This document shows, in pieces, positions 39,082 to 62,197 of a stretch of 64,000 bases of DNA. The translations under genes were made by a program, and so were the position numbers. The DNA comes from a virus, in the IMG/VR virus record IMGVR_UViG_3300023179_000041, positions 42,279 through 106,278 of that record, one strand, 5' to 3'. How positions within the stretch are numbered: the first letter of the stretch is position 1; every line of letters starts with the position of its first letter. The notes under the pieces were generated by a model. That model was not told the DNA's origin and made no database searches. It saw only the letters and a list, made by a program, of their open reading frames with translations.

Positions 39082-39192
39082 GTAAAACAAGTTGGCCGAA
39101 AACCTAAAAAATCGACACGTGTGTGCGCGATAATTTTTTCAAGAAACGGCACCGGATTAAACCCATCACGGCTGGAACACCATTTTTTGCGA

Positions 39193-39519
39193 CTAATCTC
39201 GCGCTAAATCCCGTCTTCGCAGCGTCTCATTTGAAACTTGTGCGTCCTTTATGAATTTAGTTTTCTCGTAAGCCATCAATGCAGCAATTCCACGTTCAGT
39301 AATCACAACATTCTTCCCCACTCGCATACACCAGCCGTTTTCCAAGTATCGACGAATGATTAACAGGGCCTGTGAGCGTGTTGGGACGTTCTTGGACTTC
39401 GCATTCGCTCCTTCGTGTGGAGAGACGAAGTCAATGTAGACGTCAGCGTTGAATTCCTTGCCGATGCGCGTGTAAAAGCGCATGATGTTGAGCATGTTCC
39501 ATTTGTGATTTGTTGCCAT
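39193..39519 (-). CDS. winged-helix-like protein
   Basis: RYLENGW...VITERG. Confidence 0.45.
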   Translation of the reverse strand: MATNHKWNMLNIMRFYTRIGKEFNADVYIDFVSPHEGANAKSKNVPTRSQALLIIRRYLENGWCMRVGKNVVITERGIAALMAYEKTKFIKDAQVSNETLRRRDLARD

Positions 39520-40045
39520 AGTTGTTCTTCTTCAATCTAGCGACCATCACGTCCTTTTCCAACTGCGTGAGTGGTCTTTTGTATGGTGTGTGTCTCTTGG
39601 AGTACTTGCAATTATGTTTCTTCATCGCGGCCTTTAGTTGTTTTAATTTCTCCCGACCAAAAAACAGAAGTACCAAATGCTGATATACGCGGCAAAACTC
39701 TCTTCCGTGTTCCTGTACATCTGCCGGAGTGAATAGATGCGCGAGTTCGTGGAGGATGGTGTGTTTATTTCGGAACTTGCGCGGGAATGAAACCCACATC
39801 TTGTCCGGAAGTATGCGGGCCCATGCCTTACGAGAGCCATCACCCTTGGATATCTTGAGCGGGATACGTCCAGATACGATATCGCGGGCCACTGGGTATC
39901 TTTTTTGGACCCGCCAGTTCGATAAAACTTTCCAAATGTATGCCTCGGCATCCCCCATGGTCTTGAATTCCATTGTCGGCCAGCCAAAGCACTCCCACTC
40001 CGCTGCGTAGAGGCGGCTTCTCTGGTTGTCTCGCGGGCGCGGCAT
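39443..40045 (-). CDS. SprT-like / Rv0185-family HExxH metallohydrolase
   Basis: RDNQRSRLYAAE; ILHELAH...HGREF. Confidence 0.75.
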   Translation of the reverse strand: MPRPRDNQRSRLYAAEWECFGWPTMEFKTMGDAEAYIWKVLSNWRVQKRYPVARDIVSGRIPLKISKGDGSRKAWARILPDKMWVSFPRKFRNKHTILHELAHLFTPADVQEHGREFCRVYQHLVLLFFGREKLKQLKAAMKKHNCKYSKRHTPYKRPLTQLEKDVMVARLKKNNYGNKSQMEHAQHHALLHAHRQGIQR

Positions 40046-40270
40046 GAAAACAGTTTAGAGAAACGGCAAAAGCAGAATAAACCCATTCCGGCTGGAACAC
40101 CATTTTTTTGGGACAGAGGCAGAAAAGTTTGTGATTGTGCGCACTTTCACAAACGAGGGCTCAAAATGATTTTACCGAGAGCAAAAATATTTTTTGAAAG
40201 AGGTTGTCGCATGCTCTATCACGCTGTATCATGGATAGTGTCCCTAGACAACTCAAGAAATGAGAACCCA

Positions 40271-40480
40271 ATGAAAGAGTACAGAATCACCACCATGGTC
40301 ACCGTGGATGTTTTGGCCGCAAGTGAGACCCTTGCCGTCAAGTACGCCCTGGATGAGATTGACGACCACATCAGAAACAGAGAAGACACCAAGTCTGTTA
40401 AGAACCCAGTCGTTACCGGCATTGCTCAGACCTTGGATGGCGAGTTCATGGTTTTTGAACAGAAGCGTGCTAGAGCCTGA
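40271..40480 (+). CDS. small hypothetical protein
   Basis: downstream of promoter at 40204. Confidence 0.65.
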   Translation: MKEYRITTMVTVDVLAASETLAVKYALDEIDDHIRNREDTKSVKNPVVTGIAQTLDGEFMVFEQKRARA

Positions 40481-40519
40481 TATAATATGATAACAACACA
40501 ATACGAGGAGGTGAAACAA

Positions 40520-40720
40520 ATGAGCATTGACTTAGACGCCCGCGTGGAAGAAGCGGTAGACGTGGGTCTTGAAGCCTTCTGGGCTGCCATCGTGGAGAAG
40601 TTCCCCGAGTCGCAATCCGGAGACTTTGACCCGATGCTAGAAGGTGCAATGTATGCAGATATGTCCGCATACCTTCGCCACTGGCTTACACTCAATACCA
40701 ACCTAATTCCAAAGGAGTAA
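40520..40720 (+). CDS. small hypothetical protein
   Basis: GAGGAGG SD. Confidence 0.7.
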   Translation: MSIDLDARVEEAVDVGLEAFWAAIVEKFPESQSGDFDPMLEGAMYADMSAYLRHWLTLNTNLIPKE

Positions 40721-40724
40721 ACGA

Positions 40725-41015
40725 ATGTCCTTAATCAGGAACAAATGGTTTTGGTGGTTTGTCGTTCTGGTGTTGTCCTTCGGTGTGCTGCCGGTGACGA
40801 ATGCGTCGCCGATGTTGGTCGCCATGGCAATGCTGTGGGCAATCTTTTTCCCAACCATGCAATTCACTGGAGGAGTATTTAAGTTCCTCAAGTTTCATCA
40901 ATTCCCAACCCCATTTCAACTACTGAAAGGATTCAAGCGCATATGGCCCGCCGTAAGAAAAGGTCCCGTCGTCACGCGAGTGCACCGACCACGCCCATCG
41001 TCACGTACACCGTGA
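40725..41015 (+). CDS. small membrane protein
   Basis: AAGGAG SD; two hydrophobic segments. Confidence 0.55.
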   Translation: MSLIRNKWFWWFVVLVLSFGVLPVTNASPMLVAMAMLWAIFFPTMQFTGGVFKFLKFHQFPTPFQLLKGFKRIWPAVRKGPVVTRVHRPRPSSRTP

Positions 41016-41197
41016 CAGTGGCGCACGAGCCGAATGCTGAGTGTGATGCGTGCTGCATGCCGCGGCCAACGCTCATCGAGCAGGAAAGCGGCGCATGGAT
41101 TTGCGAGATGTGCGCCGGGCTCTCAAGAGGCGGCGGTGCGTTTTGGAGCATGGCATTCTTCAATGGAATCTACGATGCAGCAGGAGACGGCTGGTGA
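40943..41197 (+). CDS. small Zn-finger protein
   Basis: CxxC...CxxC. Confidence 0.55.
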   Translation: MARRKKRSRRHASAPTTPIVTYTVTVAHEPNAECDACCMPRPTLIEQESGAWICEMCAGLSRGGGAFWSMAFFNGIYDAAGDGW

Positions 41198-41694
41198 AAA
41201 TAACCGACGACATCATCGAAAACAAGAACGCAGAACTGTGGAAGGATGCAGCGCTTAAGTACGGGACGAAATTCAAAGTTCCGAATAGCGAGCAGCAGCG
41301 CATCGGCGAACTTATCCGCGGGCTGTGCGTGATGCAGGTTTGGCAAAAAACGCCATCGGCCGGCAACATAGTGCGGTTTATGCGCGATTACTCGATTGCC
41401 CAGCCGGTAATCGAGTATCTCGTCACAGAGTACCTGGGGAAAGAACGGTTGAAAGAAGCGGTCCAAGAAAAGAAACCTGAGAAGCGCGCCGACAAGTGGA
41501 AAGCCCTTGAGGAGTGGTGCAAAAACAACACTTACAAGGAAGTAACCACCGAAGAGATTGTCGGCCTTTCGGGATTTTCTTATCCAACAGTTCTAAACTA
41601 TCTTAAAACTTCCCCATACTTCCGCAAAATACAGCGGGGCTCGTGGGAAGTGAGGGACCCCAAAGCGGATAGAGAACGAGAGAAGAATGGCTAA
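41194..41694 (+). CDS. wHTH-like protein
   Basis: GGAG SD, GTG start; EEIVGLSGFSYPTV...F.KI.RG.W. Confidence 0.6.
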   Translation: MKITDDIIENKNAELWKDAALKYGTKFKVPNSEQQRIGELIRGLCVMQVWQKTPSAGNIVRFMRDYSIAQPVIEYLVTEYLGKERLKEAVQEKKPEKRADKWKALEEWCKNNTYKEVTTEEIVGLSGFSYPTVLNYLKTSPYFRKIQRGSWEVRDPKADREREKNG

Positions 41695-42424: not shown

Positions 42425-42688
42425 ATGAAACCAATCACCGTGAGTGCTGCGGCAAATACCCGTAGTGATGGATTGCGCATCGTTGCAGTTTTGCGCGAAC
42501 TCGATGAAACAGGAGAACTCCTGTTACATGAAGCAAAGAAGGGAATGGGGTGGACGGTCACGGGCTATGTGTGCTTGTCCCTCGACAATCTTCGCAAACT
42601 ACGAAATCGTTTCAACGACATGGGTGTACTTGCCTCGGTGAAGGATGCTGACCGGCCACATGGCCCAAGGGAACGGCCTGCGCAGTAA
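42425..42688 (+). CDS. small hypothetical protein
   Basis: ORF ends inside repeat copy 3. Confidence 0.45.
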   Translation: MKPITVSAAANTRSDGLRIVAVLRELDETGELLLHEAKKGMGWTVTGYVCLSLDNLRKLRNRFNDMGVLASVKDADRPHGPRERPAQ

Positions 42689-42759
42689 AATAAAACCATT
42701 TCTACTGGAACACCATTTTTTGGGCTAGGGGCAAAATGAGACACTATTGCCGAAGTGTC

Positions 42760-42915
42760 TCACGGTAAACAGTTGAGACTGAACCAATCCTTTATTTTCT
42801 GCCAACGCGACCTATTTTCCCAATCGCGCATAGCCAGTTTCAGGCGCACATACAGGAGTTTTATTTCATCGTCGGTCATATTTTCCAGTTTGGTGTTGAA
42901 TGTTTGTTTGTCCAT
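42760..42915 (-). CDS. small hypothetical protein on opposite strand
   Basis: GAAAGG SD; hairpin TGAGACACT/AGTGTCTCA at its end. Confidence 0.45.
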   Translation of the reverse strand: MDKQTFNTKLENMTDDEIKLLYVRLKLAMRDWENRSRWQKIKDWFSLNCLP

Positions 42916-44441: not shown

Positions 44442-44797
44442 TGGGCGCAGACTTCTTTCTATGTGTCCTCGAAATAAAACACACAAAGAGTGTCGCTCTG
44501 GCAAAGGCGAAAGACCTGAACCTGACCAAAGACGACTTTCATACCTTTGAGGACGCAGGCATTTGGTTTGACTGGACTGGCGATGACGCAGAACTGGTTA
44601 AAGAGATGCGTGCGAGGCTCCTAGAGGCTGTGGAGGCCGTTTATAGCGCAACCCAGCGTCGCGACTGTTCATACTTCTATGTGGACGGCGACAGGGTGTT
44701 CTACGCCACCGGTGGGACTTCGTGGGGCGGCGAACCAAGCGATGTCTGGGACGACTTCCTCCTTGTCCAGCAATACTCCAAAGAAATCTTGGAGTAG
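44441..44797 (+). CDS. hypothetical protein
   Basis: TGATG coupling; TGGTSWG motif. Confidence 0.7.
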   Translation: MGADFFLCVLEIKHTKSVALAKAKDLNLTKDDFHTFEDAGIWFDWTGDDAELVKEMRARLLEAVEAVYSATQRRDCSYFYVDGDRVFYATGGTSWGGEPSDVWDDFLLVQQYSKEILE

Positions 44798-44866
44798 AGG
44801 TTGGCAAGTGTGCTACAATGTGCTACAATGTAAGTAATAACCAAACTCAATGAAAGGGAATACACA

Positions 44867-45346
44867 ATGGGATTAGACCAATACCTCTACGCAAAGAAAT
44901 ACTCTTGCCCGAACGACATAACTGGCAACGAGCGTTGGAAGCAGATGAACGCTGACTTCTCAAAGTTTAAGAAGTTGCTTGGCGACGACGCTAAATACAT
45001 TCATAAAGAGTTGCCAAGTATTTCTGTCGAGATGAAAATCGGCTATTGGCGCAAGGCAAATGCCATTCACCAATGGTTCGTGGACAACTGCCAGAAGGGT
45101 GAGGACGACTGCCGTGAAGCCTATGTGTCTCGTGAACAACTTGAGGAACTCTTGGGAGTAGTCAATAAAGTCCTTGCTGACCACAGCAAGGCTGATGAAC
45201 TACTGCCAACACAGTCAGGTTTCTTCTTCGGCTCAACCGAGTACGACGAGTATTACTTTGGCGACCTTGAACTGACCAAGAAGATACTGAAGAACGCCCT
45301 CTCTATGCCGAAAGAGTGGGACTTCGGATACTCAAGTTCTTGGTAA
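44867..45346 (+). CDS. conserved phage protein (MGLD...YWRKAN family)
   Basis: MGLDQY, YWRKANAIHQWF, LLPT.SGFFFGST.YD, YSSSW. Confidence 0.8.
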   Translation: MGLDQYLYAKKYSCPNDITGNERWKQMNADFSKFKKLLGDDAKYIHKELPSISVEMKIGYWRKANAIHQWFVDNCQKGEDDCREAYVSREQLEELLGVVNKVLADHSKADELLPTQSGFFFGSTEYDEYYFGDLELTKKILKNALSMPKEWDFGYSSSW

Positions 45347-45354
45347 TAACTAAA

Positions 45355-45463
45355 CACATAAGGGCAGATGACTTGGCTGGGGCGGGACGCCGCTACTTCC
45401 AGTAATGGATGTCGTTGCCGATGCTGAAAAGATGGCTGAAATAAACCATCGTTCCCTTGTGTG
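45355..45463 (+). ncRNA. candidate structured RNA (multi-stem)
   Basis: CACATAAGGG/CCCTTGTGTG closing stem with nested hairpins; no ORF in track. Confidence 0.4.
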
Positions 45464-45501
45464 AAGTTGTAAAACGACAAGAAAGGTGATACAATATCAT
45501 T

Positions 45502-45726
45502 ATGGACAAGACAACCAAATACGAAAACATAATCAACAGTATTATCAACGCCATTACCCATCACGGCGACCTCGCCACTGATGGAGAGTGCCTAGATGAG
45601 GTTTGGGGAGTTCTTGAGCAGGCTGGCTACGGCGAGCAACTCAGGAAAGTCCAAGCCGAACAAGAAGCCGACCACTTGGCGTTCATAGAAGCAAACCGCG
45701 TTCGGAGTGGTGGCGATGACGACTGA
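45502..45726 (+). CDS. small hypothetical protein, leaderless
   Basis: ATG 7 nt after TACAAT; TDGECLD. Confidence 0.65.
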   Translation: MDKTTKYENIINSIINAITHHGDLATDGECLDEVWGVLEQAGYGEQLRKVQAEQEADHLAFIEANRVRSGGDDD

Positions 45727-45982
45727 CCTTTGTGTTTACTGTCATCGCTCAACGGCGTTCGGTAGCGGCAACGGCCTGTTCGTGAACCGTATTCCAGTCG
45801 ATGACGGCTGGGGTTGCGCGGAATGCTCAGGCTTTGAGTGCGACGAGTGCGGAGAACAGATTTATCTGGACTCAGAAGTTCGCGTCGAGGGCTACGACGA
45901 AGGCAAATATCTGTACGGCAACTATCACCAAGAGTGCTACAACAGAACAAAACACGGCGACGCAAGTTATGGTGTCGTATGA
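45716..45982 (+). CDS. small Zn-binding protein
   Basis: three CxxC; FVNRIP. Confidence 0.65.
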   Translation: MTTDLCVYCHRSTAFGSGNGLFVNRIPVDDGWGCAECSGFECDECGEQIYLDSEVRVEGYDEGKYLYGNYHQECYNRTKHGDASYGVV

Positions 45983-46067
45983 AAGACATACTCGTGGTCA
46001 TTGCCCTGTTCGCTGTTCTTGCGGCTGTATTGGCCATTTACATCAAAACAAACGAAAGAGATACACA

Positions 46068-46298
46068 ATGAGCATTGTCTATTGTGATGCTTGTAGCGGG
46101 ACGTGGTTTCTTGACGCCCCGGTACGCATCGATACGCAAGGCTGGGATGACGCCGACTGGAATGCGTGGGACAATGTGATGTCCGACGCCGAACGCGGCG
46201 ACTACGCAGATAAATACGCGCACGCACAAATGTACGGCACTGTCGACAAAATGCCTTCTCCTCAAGAATATTCTCGTGGACAGGTTGGAGATGGCTGA
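46068..46298 (+). CDS. small hypothetical protein
   Basis: GAAAGAG SD-like. Confidence 0.55.
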   Translation: MSIVYCDACSGTWFLDAPVRIDTQGWDDADWNAWDNVMSDAERGDYADKYAHAQMYGTVDKMPSPQEYSRGQVGDG

Positions 46299-47037: not shown

Positions 47038-47041
47038 GGGT

Positions 47042-47556: not shown

Positions 47557-47780
47557 CGTAGCGTCCCTTGCGGCTGGGCAATCAGCCCCAAGGGAACGGC
47601 CGCACTGTAAATTAAATCCAATTTATCTGGAACACCATTTTTTGGGCCAGAGGCAAAAACCAAAGTAGCCGGGTCAGGCAAGAACCACATCCGCGAACAT
47701 ATTCTTTCGGGAAGGTTGCAAACCTGACTCGGCTATGGTACAATGTAGTTGTGGCACAACACCCACAGAAAGAAAAAATA

Positions 47781-49567: not shown

Positions 49568-49695
49568 CCCTGACCCCAAGGGAACGGCCTGCCGGTATAA
49601 ATAAATCCATTATTCGAGGAACACCATTTTTTGGGGCAGGGACAAAAACTCGGCAGCAAGATTCACAAACACACAACGGGGGCCCGGGCCGAAAG

Positions 49696-50972: not shown

Positions 50973-51290
50973 GGCCGCGAGCGCGCGGCGAGGCCGGGAA
51001 CAGGGACCGACGAACCGGACATGCCAGGGTCCAAGGGAACGGCGCAGCATAAGAATAAAACCATTGGTAATGGAACACCATTTCTTGGGTCGGGAGCAGG
51101 AGCAGGTTTACAGCGCACCGGCGCATAGCAAAACTGTTAGGCAAGCCTTACAAAAGAAACTTTGCACAATCTCAGTTTCGGGTTGCGCACCACACCCCAA
51201 GTGTGGTACAGTATAGGTATGGGGTTAGCACCCCAGAAAATAATTCAGAATAAGGTTGCGAAAGCGACTAGAATGTGATACAGTATAAGT

Positions 51291-52095: not shown

Positions 52096-52169
52096 CACAA
52101 CTCGGCCGGCAGGGGCAGAATCTTCCAAACAAAGTTGCAAAGCAACAGAAAGTGTGATACACTAGAACT

Positions 52170-53505: not shown

Positions 53506-53761
53506 TCCTTGGCTGGCCCGGCCTCATCCTTTCCGGGCCGGGCCGGCACCCAAGGGAATGGCGCAGCCTTAAATAAATCCGAATATCGAGGAACACCATA
53601 TTTTGTGGCAGGGGCAGAATTCATCAATTGCTTATTAGCAAGTCGTGCAGATAAGCCGCAGGGGCCAAGGTCACTCTCCGTGGTCGAGCGGCCACCCTGG
53701 GCGGTCAGAACTTTTTTCCGTAGAAGTTGCCAACTGTCTAACAAACTGCTATAATCTAGGT

Positions 53762-54623: not shown

Positions 54624-54851
54624 GTGGTCAGCGAGGCTGGTGGGGCAACCCCCCACCAGCCCAGCCCCAAGGGAACGGCGCAAGGCAAAATAAATCCATT
54701 TATCGAGGAACACCATTTTTTGGGGCAGGAGCAGAAATCGCTTTCACCGGCCCCGGGCTTGTGAAAGTGTGAACAAGCACAAGCCGAATGTCACACAACT
54801 GTAATACTTCTCAGGTTGCCAAATGTCTAACACTATGCCTATAATGTAGTT

Positions 54852-55211
54852 ATGAACACCACACAAGGAACCAGCCCTAATGCTGGAAGCGCAATAGATA
54901 AGTTAGATGAGTTCACGGAATACTGCTTCGAGTTCTATCTGCTTGACCCAGAAAGACCGTCGCTGTACCCGTTTGCTCTGGATTGGGAAATCTGTCGTGC
55001 GGTAGTCGCCCACATGACTGACCCGAACCCGCTATTCCCGTTTGACGGTGATAGCGCAGACCGTGAAGCAGTCCGTGACCGTATTCTCGCAGACCGCCGT
55101 CTAATCGGCTGTGGCGAGACTAACTTCGACAAGGCTGTGGCAATGGGTCAGCACGGTATCCCGTCACGCTGGCGAACCTACGAACAGACGCTAGAAAAAA
55201 TCCTCAAATAA
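54852..55211 (+). CDS. hypothetical protein, leaderless
   Basis: FDGDS.DRE.VRD. Confidence 0.7.
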   Translation: MNTTQGTSPNAGSAIDKLDEFTEYCFEFYLLDPERPSLYPFALDWEICRAVVAHMTDPNPLFPFDGDSADREAVRDRILADRRLIGCGETNFDKAVAMGQHGIPSRWRTYEQTLEKILK

Positions 55212-55287
55212 GGTTGCTGTTCTGCCCCACATCTGGTATTCTGTAGATGTGGGGCAGAAGCACCACCAACACAAGAAAGGCAAGGAA

Positions 55288-55512
55288 ATGGAAACAGAAA
55301 TCCAGAAGCCACGACAAGCGGCAACGCTCTACTCGTGGAACACAGCCATTGACCAAATCAAAGTCAGGGTGAACGGCGGTCACTTAGAGGTTCGCATTGG
55401 TGACCTCTCTATCGTGATGAGCGCAGTCTCAGGCGAGCAGGTGCTCGACCTTGCGGCGGCGTTCAGTCAGGTGGAAGTCACCGACACCGTCACCAAGACC
55501 GTCAGGGTGTAA
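55288..55512 (+). CDS. small hypothetical protein
   Basis: promoter, SD and 3' hairpin. Confidence 0.65.
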   Translation: METEIQKPRQAATLYSWNTAIDQIKVRVNGGHLEVRIGDLSIVMSAVSGEQVLDLAAAFSQVEVTDTVTKTVRV

Positions 55513-55673
55513 GTGGTGGGCTGGTGGGGTGAAAGCCCCACCAGCAAACACCCAGCCGATAGGCCGGGAATAGGGGCCGACGAAAATAATCGGCCGCCGA
55601 GTTGCGAAAGCGTCTTGGGTGTGATACAATAAAAGTGTAAGGTAAACCAACAACAGAAAGGTAAGAAACAGAA

Positions 55674-55940
55674 ATGGCAAATGTTCCAGTCCCGTTTCAG
55701 GGAACCAAAGAAGAGGCTGAGGCTAACTACCTCACGCATTCGTGGTGGTCGTTTGACGGCACGCCCGTTTGCGGAGAATGTGACGCAAAGGCTTGGCACC
55801 AAGCGGCCAACTACCCTTGCGGCACCGAGCCTGAGCGTCTTAATGTCGCAGACCTATCAGAGTGGGCAGCCCTAATCAAGGGTGAAATCACGCTGGCAGA
55901 GTTGCGAGAGCGTGAAAAGTGTGATACAATAGAAGTATAA
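55674..55940 (+). CDS. small Zn-binding protein
   Basis: H.W...CxxCDA...YPCGT. Confidence 0.65.
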   Translation: MANVPVPFQGTKEEAEANYLTHSWWSFDGTPVCGECDAKAWHQAANYPCGTEPERLNVADLSEWAALIKGEITLAELREREKCDTIEV

Positions 55941-55996
55941 GGTCGAGTGCGGCTGGTGGGGTTCCTTACCTCCTTTCCCCACCAGCCCAAGACCTC
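55939..55996 (+). ncRNA. candidate hairpin sRNA with anti-SD loop
   Basis: promoter 55902-55930 with no gene downstream; loop TTCCTTACCTCCTTT. Confidence 0.55.
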
Positions 55997-56091
55997 CCCA
56001 CGGCAGGGCCGACAGGGGCAGAATCGCAGAAAGGCAGGTTGCAAAACGCGAACAGATGTGATACACTGGAAGTATGAGGAAAGGAAAAACA

Positions 56092-56328
56092 ATGACCAAG
56101 AAAATCAGGCAATACCGATACGAGCCCGTCGGACTGGATGTCTTTGACGCTCGCCCGCATCAGCCAAAGCGTGGAACCCTCGTGGTGAAGTGCTCAGGCG
56201 GAATGGGTGCGCCAAAGAACGGAACGATGGGTCACTCGTTCGTGAAAGACGCAGTGACAGGTGAGTTCTACGGCCTCGTGCTGAATAACTCACTGAAGCC
56301 CGCTGGCCTCGTCCCTACCTCACGGTAG
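56092..56328 (+). CDS. small hypothetical protein
   Basis: G.P.NGTMGH...GLV..NSL. Confidence 0.65.
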   Translation: MTKKIRQYRYEPVGLDVFDARPHQPKRGTLVVKCSGGMGAPKNGTMGHSFVKDAVTGEFYGLVLNNSLKPAGLVPTSR

Positions 56329-56440
56329 GGCGAGTGCCGCCCGGAGGCAAACTTTGCCGCCGAGGTTGTCAAACAGCAAAATAGGTGATACAATTTAAGT
56401 AGTGGGGCAAAAGCACCACCTAACAGAAAGGAAGTAAACA

Positions 56441-56905
56441 ATGCCATTGACATGGGATATCGGAAACACAAAGGCTTACGCCAAAGACCCTGACGGAATC
56501 TGGGTGAAAGACGAGTACGGTCACACCACCGTACGCGCCGACATTCAGACGTTCATCTTCTGGGGTGGCGTGGTCGGATACGGTCGCATCACCGAAGCAA
56601 ACGCTGCCGACTACTACGGTCGGTCAAAGGCTGTTGAGGCTCTGATGCAAAACTCAATGATGCACGAGTGGAGAGAAGATGGCGAACGCCACAACCTCTA
56701 CATCACTCCAGAGATGGTAGATGAGATGGTCGGACTCAGCACCAACCACAGCACCTACAGCATCACCGAGTGGGCAAACCGTATTGCGAAGTACGGAAAC
56801 AACGTGGTCGAGATGCCAGCAAAAGTCATCAAAGCCATCGTGACCACTGAGTCGTGGAACTACGAGCAGTGGGTCAAAGCCCAGAAAGAGTTAGTCACAG
56901 CCTGA
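56441..56905 (+). CDS. hypothetical protein
   Basis: MPLTWD...ITE.N...GLSTN. Confidence 0.75.
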   Translation: MPLTWDIGNTKAYAKDPDGIWVKDEYGHTTVRADIQTFIFWGGVVGYGRITEANAADYYGRSKAVEALMQNSMMHEWREDGERHNLYITPEMVDEMVGLSTNHSTYSITEWANRIAKYGNNVVEMPAKVIKAIVTTESWNYEQWVKAQKELVTA

Positions 56906-56962
56906 CGGGTCTGGCTGGTGGGGAACCACCCCACCAGCCGATGCCCGGAGGCAGAGGAAAAA

Positions 56963-57163
56963 ATGAACTACATCATCAAACTCGAAACAGCCGTGGGCGA
57001 AATCTGCCTCGGCCCATACTCAAAACTCAGTGAGGCGCTCAGAGTGGCAAAAACCAGGGGGCAAATCATTGCGGTCATCAAACCCACAAAACTAAACGCA
57101 GTAGATATTCAGGCCATGACCGAAGCAGAGTTGCTAAAACTCCTAGAGTGTGATACACTGTAA
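56963..57163 (+). CDS. small hypothetical protein
   Basis: GAGGA SD. Confidence 0.55.
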   Translation: MNYIIKLETAVGEICLGPYSKLSEALRVAKTRGQIIAVIKPTKLNAVDIQAMTEAELLKLLECDTL

Positions 57164-57187
57164 TTATCCAACAAGAAAGGAAACACA

Positions 57188-57340
57188 ATGAGCAAGACAA
57201 CGTGGTGGGAGCATCTCCCAGAAGACATCCAAGAAGGCAAAGCGCCGCTTACAGAAGACGACTTCTGGCAAGCAGTAGCCGATGCCAACGACCTTGATGT
57301 CTCCGAGATAGCAGATGGAGACGTCATCGAGTGGCTCTAG
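57188..57340 (+). CDS. small acidic protein (50 aa)
   Basis: promoter and GAAAGG SD; below cutoff. Confidence 0.6.
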   Translation: MSKTTWWEHLPEDIQEGKAPLTEDDFWQAVADANDLDVSEIADGDVIEWL

Positions 57341-57623
57341 CCAAGTGGGGTGAGTGGCCGGCGTGGTCACTCACCCCAAGGCTCGGGAGCCCAAGGGAAC
57401 CGCCCCGAAAACAAAAATTAAACCATTTCTGACGGAACACCATTTCTTTGCCGGGGGCAAAAACAAGGTCGCGGGCTTGTGAAAGTTCGTACTATCACTT
57501 GTTAGGCACGCCTAACACCTATTGTTACAGTTGTGTAACAAGTGTCGCACAATGCGAGGAAATCTACCCCACCAATGGTATGCTTAGAGTGTAAGGTAAA
57601 AACAACAACAAGGAGAAAACACA

Positions 57624-57794
57624 ATGAGTGAAGTGAACGTCACCTACCTAACATGGGACGAAGTACCAGAAGAAATCCAATGGGAATACTACGAGCGCAT
57701 AATGGCGAAGACGTGGCACCCATGCGACCGCATGAACGAAGACAAGGCATGGAAGTACGCCGAAGAACTATGGGAAAACGAAAACGGTAGGTAA
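57624..57794 (+). CDS. small protein (56 aa)
   Basis: AAGGAG SD; below cutoff. Confidence 0.6.
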   Translation: MSEVNVTYLTWDEVPEEIQWEYYERIMAKTWHPCDRMNEDKAWKYAEELWENENGR

Positions 57795-57859
57795 CTCCGT
57801 TACACCCATAAGGCATAATGAGAGTGTAAGGCAATAACAAAACAACAAGGAGAAACCCA

Positions 57860-58132
57860 ATGAGAATAGAAGTAACCCAACTCAACTCAACGGCAGTGAG
57901 AAAACTCACTTACGTTCTGGGTGCTATTGACCCAGCCGAGACAGACGAAAATAACGAACTCACCTATGGTGAACTAGTTATTGAGTACGCCAACGGTAGC
58001 GAGTATGTCTACTACGACGTAATGCTCGGCGTGTTCACTGACCTACTCAATGCGAAGAGCATTGGGCGAGCCGTGAACGAAGACATAAAGCCGACCCACC
58101 GCTACGACAAACTCGCAACGGTAAACGCCTAG
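57860..58132 (+). CDS. KTSC domain protein
   Basis: STAV..L.Y...L.IEY.NG..Y.Y.DV....F..LL.A.SIG...N..IK. Confidence 0.75.
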   Translation: MRIEVTQLNSTAVRKLTYVLGAIDPAETDENNELTYGELVIEYANGSEYVYYDVMLGVFTDLLNAKSIGRAVNEDIKPTHRYDKLATVNA

Positions 58133-58306
58133 TAGCAAACGGGTGTAACACAGTTAGCAATAACTGTGTTACACCCCCACGCTAAAATGGGAGTGTGGGA
58201 GAGAACTGCGTTAGCCCAGGGGCAAAACTTTCAGACGAGGTTGCGAAATCACTAGAAGTGTGATACACTTAGAGTGTAAGGTAAACCAACAACAAGGAGA
58301 AACACA

Positions 58307-58528
58307 ATGGGAACATACAGCAACCTGCCCCCGGGCGTCAGCGTCAGCGACCTCCCGGGCTGGCACGACATTACGGCAGAGGTAGAGATTATCTGCCCAA
58401 ACTGCGGCCACCAGTATTGGGAAGAACACGAAATTGACGGGCGTTGCGGATACACAACAGATGTCGAGACCCAGTGCCCAAACTGCCTACGCAGGTGGGA
58501 GCACCCAGTAACCGTGTCGCTTGACTGA
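58307..58528 (+). CDS. small Zn-ribbon protein
   Basis: NLPPGVS..DLPG; two CPNC. Confidence 0.7.
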   Translation: MGTYSNLPPGVSVSDLPGWHDITAEVEIICPNCGHQYWEEHEIDGRCGYTTDVETQCPNCLRRWEHPVTVSLD

Positions 58529-58579
58529 CCGAGCGCAGTGGTGGGGCGCAAGCCCCACCCGAACGCGCAGGGGCAGAAT

Positions 58580-58593
58580 CGAACAGGTGTTCG
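58580..58593. promoter_or_regulatory. LexA (SOS) box
   Basis: CGAAC-AGGT-GTTCG. Confidence 0.65.
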
Positions 58594-58673
58594 CCCGTGC
58601 GCCAGAGGCCGCGGCGGGCGGCGAGGCACGCGCAGAGGGCGGAGAGCGTCTCCCACCTCTCCCGTCTATTATT

Positions 58674-58702
58674 ATTGTATCACACAGCGAGAGAAAAAAC
58701 AA
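58674..58702 (-). promoter_or_regulatory. leftward promoter (also 59695-59723 and 61285-61313)
   Basis: TTG...-17-TACAMT with TG extension on the minus strand. Confidence 0.7.
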
Positions 58703-58819
58703 CCTGAGCCGGCAAAAAGTTTCTGAAGTTTCTGCCCGAATAGGTTGCGAAGTGTCTAACAATCTGGCATAATTGAGTTAGTAGGGAAACCGAAGTACCT
58801 ACGAGAGAGAGGTAATGAA

Positions 58820-59110
58820 GTGAGTTATTACAAACTGCCGAGAGGCGCAAAGCGCACGAGCGAGTGGGCTGAGGTATCCAGCGAGGCTTACCCTACGGGG
58901 TGGGCTTACGACGAGATTACCAAAGTCACCTACGAAGCCGAAGTGACCTACGACGATGGCATAAAGGCAAACGCCGTTATGGTGGAGTTGTACCACAAAG
59001 GCAAGCGTGTCTATCGGCAAGCGTTCTACGGCGAGACAGCCGACAGCGACGCTTGGCGAGAGAGTGGCGACGCCCTCAACAAGTTGGCAATGGCAACGCC
59101 AACCGCATAG
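58820..59110 (+). CDS. small hypothetical protein
   Basis: GAGGT SD; FYGETA.SDA.R. Confidence 0.65.
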   Translation: MSYYKLPRGAKRTSEWAEVSSEAYPTGWAYDEITKVTYEAEVTYDDGIKANAVMVELYHKGKRVYRQAFYGETADSDAWRESGDALNKLAMATPTA

Positions 59111-59287
59111 GTCGTGAGAGCACGGCGGGGTTCAACCTCCTTCCCCCGCCGTGCCAGACCTCTCCCGCCAAAGGCCGGGAATAGGGGCTGACGAAAAAAA
59201 GTTGGGAATGAGTTGCGAAGTTATCGAGAGTGTGATACACTAATAGTAGTGGGGCAACCGCACCACTAGACCAAGGAAGGAAACACA

Positions 59288-59479
59288 ATGAGTACCCACA
59301 TCTACCACAACCTCAAAGCGGAGGGTGTCGTCGTAGAAATGCGAAACGGCACACTTGTTATCGAAATGCGCGAGGGAGACAAGTGGACTTGGCTGAACAT
59401 TACGGGCGAAATCGTAGAAATCGCTCGCAAGTTGGGCAACCCAACCGTCAAGGCAAAGCCAGAAACGGTAAACGCCTAA
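59288..59479 (+). CDS. small hypothetical protein
   Basis: promoter and AAGGAAGG SD. Confidence 0.65.
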   Translation: MSTHIYHNLKAEGVVVEMRNGTLVIEMREGDKWTWLNITGEIVEIARKLGNPTVKAKPETVNA

Positions 59480-59832
59480 GAGCGCAAGTGGGCTGAGGGG
59501 GACGAGAAGTGCCCCCTCGGCTCAATGCTCACGGCCGGGAGCCCAAGGGAACGCCTAGCGCAAATAAATCCAATTATCAGGAAACACCATATTTTGGGCG
59601 GCCGGGAGCAGGAGCAGTCTGAGGCGCGCGGGAAAAGACAAGAGGGGGGAGGGCTAGGGCTCTCCCGTGTCGCCTGCCTTGCCCTACTACTATCAGTGTA
59701 TCACACTCCGACGGAAAAAGCAACCTCAAAAAGAAAAATAAGTTTCTGCCCGAATAGGTTGACAAATGTCTAACAGCGTGCCTATAATGTAGTTGTAGGG
59801 AAAAAGAAGTACCTACAGAAAGAGGTAATGAA

Positions 59833-60093
59833 ATGAAAGTCCTTATCGGCGCCGAGACCCCAGAAAGCACGGCTATCGCAAAGTGGCACTATTCCACTGA
59901 AGACGAGGCTGGCACTATGGGCGCTCTCTTTATCACTTTCACGAATGGAAGCGTGTACGGCTACCCCAACTGCCCACTGACTATGGCACTCGCTATGGCA
60001 CAGCAGGCAAGCGTTGGTCGCTACTTCGCCCACACCGTGAAGCCCTACTTTGGCGAGAACTTCGTCAAGGTTGGCGAACAGGTGAACGCCTAA
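59833..60093 (+). CDS. KTSC domain protein
   Basis: STAI...Y...L.ITF.NG..Y.Y...SVGRYF...VK; consensus TTGACA/TATAAT promoter. Confidence 0.7.
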   Translation: MKVLIGAETPESTAIAKWHYSTEDEAGTMGALFITFTNGSVYGYPNCPLTMALAMAQQASVGRYFAHTVKPYFGENFVKVGEQVNA

Positions 60094-60237
60094 GACCCTC
60101 GCTAGTGGTGGGGCGCAAGCCCCACCACAACAGCGAAGCCGCTGGGGCAGAAATCGTAGATGGAGTTGCGAAACCGCGATAGATGTGATACAATAAGAGT
60201 GTAGGGAAAAAGAAGTACCTACAAGAGAGAGGTAAAA

Positions 60238-60483
60238 ATGAGACACAAAGGAACAGTGGCAAGCGCCGAAGTGGTGCTGAGCCCAACAATGGAATACGGA
60301 GTACGGACAGAGTGGGCAGTTGCCTTACACTTCCAAAGCCCGACGGGTGACGCCTCGGACTTTATGGTGCGAGAGTTGCCCTGCCTGAACCGTGAACAGG
60401 CAGTGATTATCGCAGACAAGTGGAATAGCGAAGTTTGCCCAGAGTTAGTGGGCAGGTTCGCAGTCTCCGACTTGGTGAACTGA
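60238..60483 (+). CDS. small hypothetical protein
   Basis: promoter, SD and 3' hairpin. Confidence 0.65.
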   Translation: MRHKGTVASAEVVLSPTMEYGVRTEWAVALHFQSPTGDASDFMVRELPCLNREQAVIIADKWNSEVCPELVGRFAVSDLVN

Positions 60484-60609
60484 AAACGGCGTAAGGCTGG
60501 TGGGGCGCTCCCCCCACCAGCCGAGCCGCTGGGGCAGAACTCTAAAAATCTTTGCGAAAGAGTTGCGAAACCTCGCAGAGTGTGATACACTATTCTTATG
60601 GAGGTAAAG

Positions 60610-60744
60610 ATGAAAAAGCAAAAGAGCAAGCGCAAGGGCTGGAACTCAGCCGATAGGCAAGCGTTCGCCGACGGGCTTCGCACCCGTGCGGTGACTATCC
60701 ACCACAAGCGCAAGCCTGCGCCTGACCGCCGAGAGTGGGACTGA
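60610..60744 (+). CDS. small basic protein (44 aa)
   Basis: GGAGG SD; below cutoff. Confidence 0.55.
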   Translation: MKKQKSKRKGWNSADRQAFADGLRTRAVTIHHKRKPAPDRREWD

Positions 60745-60894
60745 CCCACCCAGGGCGGCGGGCAACCTAGGGCGCGCGGGCGGCGGAGGCCGCGGCGGGC
60801 AAAACTTTGCGCCGCAGGTTGCGAAATAGAAGTAGTTGTGATACACTAGAAGTAGTGGGGCAACCGCCTCACACAACACAAAGGAGAAAGAACA

Positions 60895-61137
60895 ATGGAT
60901 ACAATGACCGAGGGTGAGATAGCGCAGCAGAAGGCGAATGAAGTCAAGTTCATTCTGCGCCGACTGATTGACCAAGTAGAGGCAGCCGAAGCGGAGGCAG
61001 CCGACACGCCCCACGACGAAGAAAAGAGCAGCCTCATTCAGGGTGCACTGAGGGTCGTACAGCGACGTTGCAGCAACCTCGCCTACGACATTGTGTACGC
61101 ATACGGAACGCTGCTCAACACGCAAGAAGCAAAGTAG
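60895..61137 (+). CDS. small helical protein
   Basis: promoter and AAGGAG SD. Confidence 0.65.
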   Translation: MDTMTEGEIAQQKANEVKFILRRLIDQVEAAEAEAADTPHDEEKSSLIQGALRVVQRRCSNLAYDIVYAYGTLLNTQEAK

Positions 61138-61394
61138 TCCCGAGGGGGGAGGGCGACCTCCCCCACAAGGGGCGGCCAGGGGCCGCGCGGGGCGCGGCGG
61201 GCAACCCAGGGCGAAGAGGGGCGCGCGGGCTGCCACTTGCCGGAGAGGGGCGCGAGCCGTCTCCTACCCCACCCCTACAATAATAGTGTATCACAGACTG
61301 ACGCAAAAAGCAACCTCAAACAAAAAATAAAAAATGCTCAGGAAGTTGCGAAACCTTGCGAAGTGTGATACAGTATTAGTAGGAGGAAAACACA

Positions 61395-61646
61395 ATGAAC
61401 ATCGGACAACTAGCAACGGCACACATTCGCAACGGCGGAACCGCTAAGGCTTCGTCGTGGCGTGCTTATCAGGGCGAGAAGGTACGAGAAATCTACCACT
61501 ACACCACCTTGATGGCGAAGGTCGAAGGCAAGACCCTCACCAAGGTAAGTGAAGGTTGGGGCTCAGTCACCGATAAGCAAGGCTGGCGAAAACTGAGCAA
61601 CGCTGCCCGAAATGCAGGGTTCACCGTGAACGAGTTGCAAAACTAA
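61395..61646 (+). CDS. small hypothetical protein
   Basis: AGGAGG SD; HY.T.M...GWGS.TDKQG. Confidence 0.7.
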   Translation: MNIGQLATAHIRNGGTAKASSWRAYQGEKVREIYHYTTLMAKVEGKTLTKVSEGWGSVTDKQGWRKLSNAARNAGFTVNELQN

Positions 61647-61670
61647 TAGAAGTGTGATACAATAGGACTA

Positions 61671-61734
61671 GAGTGGTTGGGGCGGGCTAAACCGGCTGCG
61701 GAACAGAGGCGTCGTGCTCTCGCCTCAACCACTC
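61671..61734 (+). ncRNA. candidate ~65-nt hairpin RNA
   Basis: own promoter; 16-bp stem with two G-U pairs; no ORF. Confidence 0.55.
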
Positions 61735-61777
61735 ACAGAAAGTTGCAAAACCAAGGGAAATCTGTTATACTAAAGAT

Positions 61778-61892
61778 GATGCAAAGCGAGCCCGAAGGTA
61801 TTCGTACCTTCACCAAAGGGTTAGCCGAGCACCCTCGCTGAACAACCGAAACCCCCAGCCGCAAGGGCGTAGGCAGCGTTGATTGAGAAGGC
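61778..61892 (+). ncRNA. candidate structured RNA with UUCG and GCAA tetraloops
   Basis: own promoter; GAAGGTA-TTCG-TACCTTC inside AGCGAG/CTCGCT. Confidence 0.5.
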
Positions 61893-61949
61893 CACGCAGG
61901 GTAGTTGCAAAACACTACCCTGCGTGTTATACTAAAAACAGGAGGAAAA

Positions 61950-62096
61950 ATGACACCGAGAGAACAAAACAGACTAAACCGAGAGAACCACGAGAGGGTA
62001 GAAATCTTCGACTGGGCGCTCGACATTGACCTAAACGAGGACTTCGCCAAATGGGCAGAGGAACTTCGGAGGGCTCTGGAGAGCGACGAGGACTGA
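61950..62096 (+). CDS. small acidic protein (48 aa)
   Basis: AGGAGG SD. Confidence 0.6.
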   Translation: MTPREQNRLNRENHERVEIFDWALDIDLNEDFAKWAEELRRALESDED

Positions 62097-62197
62097 CCTG
62101 CGAGCAGGGGCAGACCAGCCCCGAAGGAACGCTTTGCGCAAAAATAAATCCGAACATTCTGGAACACCATATTTTGGGCAGCCGGAGGCAAAAGTGA

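Follow-up and report, generated by a model that had tools for sequence, protein, structure and literature searches.

A conserved, polar ~75-bp element in the early region of a freshwater actinobacterial phage as a possible phage-specific promoter core

In an uncultivated freshwater actinobacterial phage and in related phages, the early region carries a repeated element of ~75 bp, which is a real, strongly conserved, polar and sequence-specific signal without a structured-RNA signature. We tentatively read it (probability of roughly 0.4) as a lineage-specific transcription signal that would be recognized by a protein in duplex DNA, namely a promoter core specific to the phage and fitted with plug-in operators. 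A core of the non-sigma-70 type has become the leading interpretation on account of the operator-like palindromes, which are interchangeable and keep a fixed position just downstream of the element.

Distribution and polarity of the element

The window (i.e., the whole stretch of 64,000 nucleotides that was analyzed) covers bases 42279-106278 of a 106,278-bp IMG/VR contig. A scan for the core TAAANCC-N9-GRAACACCAT (≤1 mismatch) returned 11 matches between 39158 and 62170, all on the + strand, against 0.00 expected by chance from 100 dinucleotide-preserving shuffles of the window (Table 1). Neighboring core starts are 920-4922 bp apart. The first-pass annotation had described 11 co-oriented copies every 0.9-4.9 kb and none left of 39 kb, and both statements hold within the window. 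No copy lies on the opposite strand of either the window or the 106-kb record. That annotation had also proposed scanning the whole genome and relatives. The full record contains 13 copies, the extra two being on the + strand at bases 800 and 2064, and therefore the series extends beyond the right end of the window. Related IMG/VR phage contigs (at least 10) and >100 metagenome contigs also carry the element, which gave 199 distinct copies overall.

Table 1. Positions of the element copies and associated features in the window
Feature	Coordinates	Strand	Core start	Remarks
Copy 1	39129..39206	+	39174 (GGAACACCAT)	Box 1 variant AAGAAACGGC; box 4 missing; between the stops of + gene 38527-39081 and minus gene P0002
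Copy 2	40049..40126	+	40094	Divergent gap between the P0001 minus-strand start (40045) and the next + unit; palindrome 40127-40154 downstream
Copy 3	42662..42739	+	42707	Directly followed by palindrome TGAGACAC-N10-GTGTCTCA at 42737-42762
Copy 4	47584..47661	+	47629	73 nt past stop of ribbon-helix-helix gene (47332-47556); HTH regulator gene (47751-48014) next
Copy 5	49573..49650	+	49618	Perfect DnaA box TTATCCACA downstream, 49696-49704
Copy 6	51027..51104	+	51072	146 nt past DUF932 gene (49883-50926), its hairpin and an SOS-type box (50959-50972); IdeR-like box 51135-51152
Copy 7	53545..53622	+	53590	Orthologous junction in the closest relative (G407) has hairpin and box 4 only
Copy 8	54662..54739	+	54707	84 nt past stop of gene 54213-54623 and a strong GC hairpin
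Copy 9	57389..57466	+	57434	Palindromes downstream, one being TGTTAGGCACGCCTAACA at 57500-57517
Copy 10	59536..59613	+	59581 (GAAACACCAT)	10-bp direct repeat GGCCGGGAGC on both sides; heads a ~1-kb module missing in G407
Copy 11	62116..62193	+	62161	Followed by palindrome GTGAAAGTTCGCACTTTCAC at 62194-62213 and IdeR-like box at 62227-62244
Stand-alone box 4	52111..52120	+		AGGGGCAGAA
P0001	39443-40045	-		HExxH metallohydrolase, Rv0185 type
P0002	39193-39519	-		Winged-helix fold

In 9 of the 9 phage contigs tested, the element has the orientation of the sigma-A-type extended -10 promoters (for example, 44:5, 38:5, and 32:6), with no element on the other strand, and none of the 45 multi-copy metagenome loci has copies on mixed strands. 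This strict orientation in every contig, together with a linear, information-rich core that shows no covariation, supports a sequence-specific signal that is polar, as the earlier annotation proposed.

Phages with a protein identity of only 35-60% still have an identical core, and the positions and order of the copies are largely kept between phages at only 66-80% DNA identity. Comparing G000 with G003, the element is ~80% identical and the flanking coding DNA 66-71%. In every relative, the element is limited to an early region of ~25 kb, and no copy stands ahead of replication and structural genes. Some orthologous junctions lack the element among relatives, so it is dispensable at any single junction.

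Exact matches to TAAANCC-N9-GRAACACCAT were found in 0 of 400 further genomes belonging to the class of an Actinomycetes MAG, a class that may not be that of the host. Across 185,579 species genomes, matches occurred one per contig and were scattered over unrelated phyla, and the bipartite motif was not found in isolated phages. Since the motif does not recur in the sampled Actinomycetes genomes or in isolated phages, we rejected a host regulon operator as the identity of the element.

Anatomy of the element

The core consensus is AA(A/T)TAAAnCC-N9-GGAACACCAT(A/T)TTTT-GGG. Among 65 copies from 11 contigs, the positions of box 2 are identical in 61-65, box 3 (GGAACACCAT) is invariant, and the T-tract after box 3 is conserved in 58-63; the 199 distinct copies show the same pattern. 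A looser box 1 (RGAAACGGC) lies upstream, mostly starting 33-37 nt from the core, and a G-rich box 4 (AGGGGCAGAA) lies mostly 17-24 nt downstream, both at slightly variable distances. The fixed internal spacing noted previously is therefore confined to the 9 nt between boxes 2 and 3, and the 17-bp internal tandem reported with it is not conserved, about a third of the copies having CCGAA instead of CCATT.

Box 4 also stands alone, in a short form in which a hairpin is followed by box 4 and then, after 11-13 nt, by the -35 of a sigma-A promoter. Besides the site listed in Table 1, such short forms occur at 56014, 58218, 63310, 63581, and 63948, and stand-alone boxes at 58569 and 62698 adjoin SOS-type boxes without a promoter directly downstream.

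Promoter, terminator, RNA, and coding signatures

An ordinary sigma-70/sigma-A promoter, with a TTGACA-like -35 and a TANNNT -10 spaced 16-18 nt apart, is not what the element contains. A consensus promoter scan of positions 44500-64000 gave 30 sites (11 expected), 0 of them inside any element on either strand, and the best -10 in manual registers was CAT(A/T)TT, without a -35 match. The first-pass verdict that the element is not a promoter is accurate for the sigma-70 type; as a general exclusion it was unjustified. An intrinsic terminator was also rejected, as no element holds a terminator-like match and unpaired GGAACACCA precedes the T-tract.

The absence of covariation, of an Rfam match, and of a consensus fold ruled out a structured RNA. 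RNAalifold predicted 0 pairs on 32 copies, base-pair counts in the element equaled those of shuffled controls, and base-pair covariation was found in neither 32 nor 199 copies, mutual information across the latter reflecting neighbor and register effects only. Rfam 15 gave 0 matches at the gathering threshold over the whole window and, at E up to 5, one chance-level match only in 38.5-64 kb. A coding repeat or mini-ORF was discarded as well: over 50 nt, the best frame stays open in 78% of the 199 copies, and over 80 nt in ≤67%, no frame is open in all copies, and the spacing of box 1 shifts by non-multiples of 3. The earlier assertion that the element is neither hairpin nor ORF is thereby upheld.

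An unstructured RNA signal that acts from read-through transcripts, within the upstream unit's 3' untranslated region, appears very improbable; its reader could be, for instance, an RNA-binding protein, a ribonuclease, or the ribosome. Such a signal would suit the co-orientation and the position of copies behind U-less hairpins, at which termination may be poor, the GGA motifs about 35 nt apart in boxes 1 and 3, and the similarity of box 3 to the phage's own ribosome-binding context GGAAACACAATG (families D13, D16, and D20). Yet, apart from the missing fold and covariation, copy 2 has no preceding + gene, DNA operators better match the placement of the palindromes, and the record holds no complementary partner, the 10-mer never occurring on the other strand.

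Gene context and downstream operator-like boxes

All copies are intergenic and ahead of + genes. In the record, 10 of the 13 lie 65-146 nt past the stop of a + gene and a GC-rich hairpin, and the remaining three are 279-343 nt from the nearest called ORF. The first-pass annotation placed copies even between minus-strand genes, which fits copies 1 and 2 insofar as they flank one minus-strand block of two genes (39193..40045; P0001 and P0002), conserved in at least 6 relatives; the other nine follow + genes. A sigma-A-type promoter stands between each copy and the next gene, and only 13 of about 45 promoter junctions have the element.

Of 189 copies, 29% have a perfect palindrome (arms ≥7) at +22 to +80, versus 2.6% after shuffling, and 44 of these 55 palindromes begin at +25 to +39, i.e., 25-39 nt after the core and with the conserved T-tract 10-25 nt upstream of them. 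At least 6 unrelated palindrome types occupy that place, one being GCGAACAnnTGTTCGC, and SOS-box types are among the boxes that start there. The palindromes lie anywhere from about 60 to 220 nt ahead of the next sigma-A promoter and are therefore placed by the element and not by that promoter. Other boxes also lie just downstream of the element: of 190 copies, 20 have a perfect DnaA box at +20 to +100, 14 an SOS-type box, and 14 an IdeR-like box.

This arrangement bears on the main rival explanation, which we regard as somewhat unlikely: a polar roadblock, terminator, or insulator of the stoperator kind. A phage or host protein on the element or the adjoining palindrome would halt rightward polymerases that run past U-less 3' hairpins, with the T-tract as release site, and the next unit's operators and promoters would thus be shielded. 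The position of most copies behind a + gene and its hairpin is consistent with this, as are the T-tract ahead of the palindromes and the A6-hairpin-T6 bidirectional terminator-like site directly before copy 1. Canonical hairpin-plus-T terminators are not enriched in the promoter-dense region (28 versus 25.7 expected) and almost none are on the + strand, so another stop signal is plausible. Copies 1 and 2 bracket the winged-helix protein gene, and co-orientation with transcription recalls the Cluster A mycobacteriophage stoperators described in PMC9283540. Against a roadblock, the ~25 near-invariant bases of boxes 2 and 3 are superfluous for a release tract, no hairpin abuts the T-tract, copy 2 has no + gene ahead of it, and the element is missing from most promoter junctions. 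Moreover, stoperator sequences differ between Cluster A immunity groups, whereas the core here is identical across divergent phages.

The same boxes could serve an architectural or decoy site, in which a nucleoprotein complex organizes or silences the early region, or host proteins are titrated via the adjacent DnaA, SOS, and IdeR-like boxes, an explanation that takes in the previous ideas of an organiser and of genome entry and that we hold to be decidedly improbable. Restriction to the early region in all relatives, the recurrence of copies at intervals of a few kilobases, the enrichment of host-regulator-like boxes, and a multipartite size of ~75 bp are all compatible with it. Shifts of several base pairs in the spacing of boxes 1 and 4 argue against a single rigid complex, however; a purely architectural site would not need strict polarity, and the motif's absence from the sampled host-class genomes means that it is not a copied host site.

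Homology boundaries and recombination

A recombination site or miniature mobile element is, in our estimate, the least probable alternative. Copies would either mark cassette junctions, with homologous or site-specific exchange, or have spread into box-4-like targets. Several features point this way: the copies on either side of the minus-strand block are the two most alike, as in a Campbell-type insertion; some copies have flanking direct repeats (GGCCGGGAGC at 59581) and short inverted ends, CCCCAA...TTGGGG; presence and absence alternate at orthologous junctions, repeatedly with the 5' edge of box 4 as the junction; and genes between conserved copies are partly replaced among relatives.

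On the other hand, copy positions and order are largely retained, neither relatives nor population contigs showed a clean insertion or deletion of ~60 nt, every presence/absence difference accompanies other sequence replacement, and population contigs show no such difference at all. The association with breakpoints that had been suggested as a check amounted, against the closest relative, to 3 of 22 homology-block boundaries near the element (6% expected, not significant), and these boundaries cluster at ordinary promoters at least as much. No integrase, recombinase, or transposase was found among the scanned ORFs of a genome of which about 21% is missing, copies keep a single orientation, and the near-invariant core suggests selection on function rather than the drift of a selfish repeat. 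The earlier suggestion of a recombination or cassette-exchange site is accordingly not borne out, and neither cassette exchange nor genome entry has specific support.

A site-specific recombination site of the integron attC type was rejected, with no conserved inverted repeat, no integrase or recombinase among the scanned ORFs, and no significant breakpoint enrichment. So was a MITE, as one orientation prevails in 45 of 45 multi-copy loci and orthologous positions are kept; the inverted ends span 4-6 bp only, and direct repeats occur at some copies.

A possible second promoter class

Under the promoter reading, host RNA polymerase with a phage factor would use the element as a second promoter class, presumably starting transcription at the element, which the factor would recognize. 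Boxes 2 (AATAAAnCC) and 3 with their rigid 9-nt spacing would be the recognition elements, the (A/T)TTTT tract the melting region, and the G-run and box 4 the start region. The palindromes 25-39 nt past box 3 would act as interchangeable operators, through which different regulators (SOS-box, IdeR-like, and DnaA-box types, as well as phage-specific ones) may gate individual copies, and the copies would fire rightward into early units that also bear ordinary sigma-A promoters, much as the middle promoters of phage T4 stand behind early terminators. The ~75-bp span including boxes 1 and 4 approximates an RNA polymerase-promoter footprint, and the floating boxes 1 and 4 resemble upstream and start-site promoter elements.

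Other observations fit this promoter reading less well, among them the lack of copies ahead of replication or structural genes and the dispensability of the element at single junctions. The element is never the sole promoter candidate because a sigma-A-type promoter follows each copy, and the available 79% of the genome revealed no sigma factor, no RNA polymerase, and no known specificity factor. Box 4 alone, upstream of a sigma-A -35, is a poor fit to a pure start region; copy 1 as a promoter would fire antisense into the convergent operon; and the candidate -10 CAT(A/T)TT has neither the usual T at -12 nor a TG extension.

It is unlikely that the element represents the core of an undescribed promoter class by which this freshwater actinophage lineage redirects host RNA polymerase with a non-sigma factor, every copy being coupled to a plug-in operator of its own (SOS-box, DnaA-box, IdeR-like, or phage-specific). 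If it did, the early region would be a sensor array for host DNA damage, replication, and iron status.

Comparison with known systems

Integron attC sites (~60-140 bp, co-oriented) resemble the element in punctuating an array of small gene units. They are, however, imperfect inverted repeats that fold as single strands for an integron integrase; the element shows no conserved inverted-repeat structure, no integrase was found, and the units here have their own promoters. The ultra-small mobile elements of mycobacteriophages (MPMEs) measure about 440 bp and carry 11-bp inverted ends, and bacterial MITEs insert in both orientations, leaving clean filled and empty sites. The element is likewise a short intergenic repeat with presence/absence between relatives and some flanking direct repeats, but its single orientation, conserved orthologous positions, and lack of clean indels set it apart.

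Stoperators are intergenic and oriented with transcription; the element shares their asymmetry, co-orientation, and many copies in an actinobacteriophage genome. According to PMC9283540 and PMC6550527, the Cluster A phage repressor at stoperators also terminates elongation, and these sites, there and in the wider literature, are of 13-14 bp, genome-wide, and variable by immunity group. The element differs in being ~75 bp and multipartite, in occupying the early region only rather than the genome at large, and in its identical core across divergent phages, and the winged-helix gene between copies 1 and 2 is not linked to it.

Promoters of T7-type phage RNA polymerases are about 20-30 bp and co-oriented, and in them an AT-rich segment for melting precedes a G-rich start. 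The element, too, is repeated, information-rich, and co-oriented, with an AT-rich stretch before a G-rich putative start; unlike them, it reaches much further upstream and its copies are in one region only. The available 79% of the genome yielded no gene for a single-subunit RNA polymerase.

T4 middle promoters combine a good sigma-70 -10 with a 9-bp MotA box at -30, often lie behind early terminators, and are read by host polymerase with phage factors (sigma appropriation). The element has a poor putative -10 and a conserved core of about 30 bp, unlike these promoters, and no MotA/AsiA-like pair was identified in the phage, where a WhiB-like protein is a speculative candidate for the factor. 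Like the MotA-dependent promoters, the element occurs in many co-oriented copies across a pre-replicative region whose genes also have early promoters.

Distribution and anatomy of the element

Our data establish that the element, a ~75-bp signal of the early region, is a linear sequence signal that is specific to its lineage, locked in orientation, and subject to strong purifying selection. A search for its core (TAAANCC-N9-GRAACACCAT, ≤1 mismatch) yielded 11 matches in the window, all on the + strand and with 0.00 expected from shuffles, which bears out the eleven co-oriented copies reported in the first-pass annotation. The whole record contains 13 copies, none of them on the minus strand; the two extra ones are at record bases 800 and 2064, and the series therefore leaves the window's right end and resumes at the contig's left end. 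A promoter fragment, TGTGATACACT, is common to both contig ends, which makes a repeat the probable cause of the assembly break.

The anatomy was derived from 65 copies of 11 phage contigs, aligned on the core. Box 2, AA(A/T)TAAAnCC, is followed by nine variable AT-rich bases and then by box 3, GGAACACCAT, which is invariant except for G/A at position 2. Next come (A/T)TTTT, with T in 58-63 of the 65 copies, and a G-run. The looser box 1 (RGAAACGGC, in many cases behind a CCCAAGG) usually begins 33-37 nt upstream of box 3, and the G-rich box 4, (C)AGGGGCAGAA, usually 17-24 nt downstream of it, most commonly 20-21. The fixed internal spacing initially proposed thus holds for the distance between boxes 2 and 3 and not for the other boxes, whose distances vary, and the internal 17-bp tandem described with it is not a conserved feature of the alignment.

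The element is conserved in related phages, since exact-pattern scans found it in at least 10 further IMG/VR contigs; one relative (G003, 105 kb) has 12 copies, and two closer ones (G407 and G408) have 9 each. In addition, a metagenome scan uncovered at least 117 stretches with the element on >100 contigs, and the pooled set comprises at least 199 distinct 110-nt copies. None of the 45 multi-copy loci among the matches listed has copies on both strands. Within each contig, the copies are restricted to one ~20-25-kb region where small genes and strong promoters are abundant, and in each of the nine phage contigs compared, its direction is that of the large majority of sigma-A-type extended -10 promoters (element-oriented versus opposite, for example, 44 to 5, 28 to 6, 38 to 5, and 32 to 6). 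Tandem pairs of copies, 67-73 nt apart, occur in some relatives (locus L300 of contig G411, and loci L320, L329, and L354).

The element was absent from all isolated phages searched, and none of these is a close relative of the phage under study. The exact pattern was likewise found in 0 of 400 further genomes of the class of an Actinomycetes MAG. Bacterial species genomes gave scattered single matches in unrelated phyla, and a host motif was discarded as a reading. The core sequence has no match in the searchable literature, and publications on phiC31 early promoters and freshwater actinophages offered nothing relevant.

The phage and its record

The window covers bases 42279-106278 of the source record (106,278 bp), to which CheckV assigns 79% completeness. 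Its structural genes encode terminase, portal, prohead protease, HK97-type capsid, a 1526-aa tape measure, a tail tip/fibre protein, and endolysin; the others include an SNF2 helicase, SSB, an O-like replication initiator, ParB-N proteins, and a WhiB-family regulator, the last of which suggests an actinobacterial host. Regulator-type genes of the window are those for the WhiB-like protein (36799-37353), a ribbon-helix-helix protein (47332-47556), and an HTH protein (47751-48014). The phage DNA is present in lake and freshwater metagenomes, and no RNA run is listed as containing it. No informative neighbours were found in Atlas for a 159-aa core early protein.

Three further features of the record deserve mention. 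Past the final element copy, a ~2-kb stretch (record bases 2100-4100, outside the window; locus L292) is poor in credible ORFs and rich in repeats and regulator-like boxes. A tRNA-Thr(TGT) gene at record bases 4003-4076, also outside the window, lies just ahead of the packaging and structural genes. Within the tail/adhesin region, long imperfect 9/12-nt repeats (ACTACGACT...) correspond to a Thr-rich low-complexity stretch of a 712-aa protein.

Structure, coding, and known signal classes

Structured RNA was rejected, with no Rfam matches and 0 pairs returned by RNAalifold. Two helices from single-sequence folds, CCCAAGGGAA/UUUUUUGGG and V1/V2 around box 2, did not differ from shuffles: in a 32-copy alignment, paired cells, compensatory changes, and covariation score equalled the shuffled means, the observed values being reached by 215, 277, and 138 of 500 shuffles, respectively. 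Mutual information across 199 copies revealed no long-range complementary pairs, its signal coming from adjacent columns and box 4 register shifts. With no consensus structure and no frame open in all copies, the element is neither a hairpin nor an ORF, as had been stated. An RNA signal that acts unstructured has less support than a promoter core or a polar roadblock, and we think it quite improbable.

Consensus scans placed no hairpin-plus-T terminator and no sigma-70-type promoter inside any copy. The earlier assertion that the element is not a promoter is therefore right for the sigma-70 type and does not stand as a general exclusion, a promoter core being the reading we favour. ARAGORN found 0 tRNAs in the window, and a tRNA-like reading of GGAAC-A-CCA was dropped. 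Likenesses of box 3 to the ECF -35 (GGAAC), the sigma-32 -10 (CCCCATNT), sigma-28, sigma-54, the 16S rRNA 3' end, and CsrA GGA sites were also considered and may be numerology. The element is real, no other non-coding feature of the lineage's early regions is as conserved, and nothing like it is found in Rfam, isolated phages, or the searchable literature. Among described promoters, terminators, RNA families, and recombination sites, it has no match; repeated phage-specific transcription signals in general are an already known kind of feature.

Comparison of orthologous junctions

The order of copies at orthologous junctions is the same in G003 as in the phage under study, with coding blocks 66-76% and elements about 80% identical. 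Nine copies correspond in the closer G407 (77-85%), and two of the phage under study have no counterpart there. At 53590, G407 has hairpin-CCC-box 4 where the phage under study has hairpin-boxes 1-3-box 4, and the upstream gene module differs too. At 59581, the phage under study carries an extra ~1-kb module that has the element at its start and ends in the hairpin ahead of a stand-alone box 4. Copies 4 and 6 are missing in relatives G410 and G409, respectively; the adjacent sequence is replaced as well, with no clean indel.

These junctions bear on a recombination or mobile-element role, under which gene gain and loss might break at the element. Between the phage under study and G407, 3 of 22 homology-block boundaries fall within 25 bp of an element (6% expected; not significant), and 8 of 22 fall within 25 bp of a sigma-A promoter (12% expected). 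Conserved regulatory motifs generally act as islands where homology starts or stops, and the element does not stand out among them. Nor did population contigs from four runs contain circular junctions or clean indels at the element; their joints lie at several kinds of repeat, promoters among them. Among ~75 ORFs scanned with Pfam, PHROGs, and NCBIfam, no integrase was detected. Such a role is less supported and, of the readings considered, the least probable.

Genomic context of the copies

Ten of the 13 record copies lie 65-146 nt past the stop codon of a + strand gene and past a GC-rich hairpin without a T-tail; for the remaining three, the closest ORF called upstream is 279-343 nt away. 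An A6-hairpin-T6 site precedes copy 1, which adjoins the 3' end of a convergent operon on the minus strand; copy 2 is at the 5' end of the same operon, which is kept at the protein level in at least 6 relatives. Its 108-aa product is modelled as a winged-helix fold (pLDDT 82), with members of the MarR, PadR, and AF1382 families as best PDB neighbours. This operon lies between the two element copies that resemble each other most and is divergent from the early units, in the manner of a regulatory cassette. Many 3' hairpins have stems GGCTGGTGGGG...CCCCACCAGCC, so that GCTGGTGG, the E. coli Chi octamer, occurs on both strands; this is probably a coincidence, the host being actinobacterial.

At least one sigma-A-type promoter, the ordinary early promoter of the region, lies between every copy and the next gene. 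The element is consequently never the sole promoter candidate and, if a terminator, would never leave a gene without a promoter. Copy 2 had appeared to be the only promoter of gene 40166; orthologues place the true start at an internal ATG near 40271, with a sigma-A promoter in between that is present at all orthologous loci. The other apparently promoter-less copies were resolved on inspection.

The strong early promoter, (A/G)GTTGCGAAA-N12-TGTGATACA(A/C)T, occurs ~45 times on the + strand and only 3-5 times on the minus strand, in window 40455-64000 and record bases 250-1702, and many share conserved leaders (AAGTGTAAGC..., AGTAGTGGG...). Three minus-strand copies point leftward into ORF-poor, hairpin-rich DNA. 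In a second subclass (TTGCCAAnTGTCTAACAnnnTGCCTATAAT), the spacer carries a fixed TGTCTAACA, which looks like a built-in operator.

Box 4 is also an independent polar motif, found 15 times on the + strand and 0 times on the minus strand of the early region. Its short form, which lacks boxes 1-3, stands behind a hairpin; six examples lie 11-13 nt ahead of a sigma-A -35.

Coordinates of the element copies and neighbouring features
Feature	Position in window	Strand	Remark
Element core 10-mer, copies 1-11 (starts)	39174, 40094, 42707, 47629, 49618, 51072, 53590, 54707, 57434, 59581, 62161	+	
Two-gene operon	39193-40045	minus	Rv0185-type HExxH metallohydrolase and 108-aa winged-helix protein
Stand-alone box 4 (AGGGGCAGAA)	52111, 56014, 58218, 58569, 62698, 63310, 63581, 63948	+	
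SOS-type boxes, CGAAC-N4-GTTCG	50959-50972, 58580-58593, 62683-62696		perfect
DnaA box	49696-49704		perfect
IdeR/DtxR-like boxes, TGTTAGG-N-CCTAACA	51135-51152, 57500-57517, 62227-62244		
Second promoter subclass	53727-53755, 54816-54845, 59759-59788, 62314-62345		also record ~2290
Early promoter, minus-strand copies	58648-58716, 59669-59737, 61259-61327	minus	59669-59737 predicted to transcribe copy 10 antisense
3' hairpins	54634-54660, 52071-52094		and others
Imperfect 9/12-nt repeats	11157-11921		
Palindrome type TGAGACA-N12-TGTCTCA			
Palindrome type GTTTGTGAAAGT-N4-ACTTTCACAAAC			
Palindrome type GCGAACAnnTGTTCGC			actinobacterial SOS-box
Palindrome type ATATAGC-N6-GCTATAT			
Palindrome type AACTTTACATAAC-N5-GTTATGTAAAGTT			

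Operator-like sites downstream of the core

Perfect inverted repeats with arms of ≥7 bp are found at +22 to +80 from the core in 29% of 189 distinct copies, versus 2.6% after shuffling. In 44 of 55, the palindrome starts at +25 to +39, and at least six unrelated types are represented. Perfect DnaA boxes lie at +20 to +100 in 20 of 190 copies, and IdeR-like TTAGG-N-CCTAA boxes and SOS-type boxes accompany 14 of 190 each. Since the gap between a palindrome and the sigma-A promoter that follows ranges from about 60 to >200 nt, the palindromes are placed relative to the element and not to that promoter. A constant core with interchangeable operator-like sites at a set place has the look of a promoter family under diverse repressors. 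In the window, the SOS-type, DnaA, and IdeR/DtxR-like boxes are in spacers between units and not over promoters; IdeR-like and DnaA boxes also occur in G411 (locus L300), the relative that has diverged most.

The same surroundings can be read as those of a terminator or polar roadblock. Such a site would resemble the stoperators known from Cluster A mycobacteriophages, where repressors with many binding sites also terminate elongation (PMC9283540). The position behind U-less hairpins, the scarcity of canonical terminators, and the T-tract upstream of the palindromes all fit, and 3' ends would then pile up at CCAUUUUUU. However, so much invariant upstream sequence is left unexplained, as is an identical core despite phage proteins that are only 35-60% identical. 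We consider this main rival rather unlikely.

Interpretation and significance

The reader of the element is most likely a protein or protein complex that acts on rightward early transcription. Judging from sequence, our preferred reading, at a probability of roughly 0.4, is a promoter core specific to the phage and fitted with plug-in operators. The promoter reading alone covers, all at once, the ~25 near-invariant bases, the ~75-bp span, and one rigid spacing with floating flanks; it also covers a G-rich segment behind an AT-rich tract, the shared direction of element and genes, and the fixed place of diverse operators. An architectural or decoy role has less support and appears improbable. 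In the favoured promoter, CAT(A/T)TT would serve as a weak -10, transcription would begin near +17 to +21, within either the G-run or box 4, and the operators would lie over roughly +5 to +40 of the transcript. Against this reading, no RNA polymerase or sigma factor was detected among ~75 ORFs scanned with Pfam, PHROGs, and NCBIfam, and no sigma or appropriator candidate was found except, speculatively, the WhiB-like protein. In addition, sigma-A promoters are always downstream, box 4 also occurs alone, and firing of copy 1 would be antisense.

The element defines a lineage of large actinobacterial phages that is uncultivated and widespread in freshwater, for which its 26-bp pattern is a specific metagenome marker, and under either reading it is a precise handle for studying regulation in these phages. 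A polar roadblock would extend the stoperator principle past temperate mycobacteriophages. A promoter class would point to a so far unrecognised route to re-programming actinobacterial RNA polymerase, and its copies, with the same core and different operators, a natural construct set. In the pre-replicative region of T4, middle promoters that duplicate early ones are situated behind early terminators, and they provide a functional precedent for the element as a promoter.
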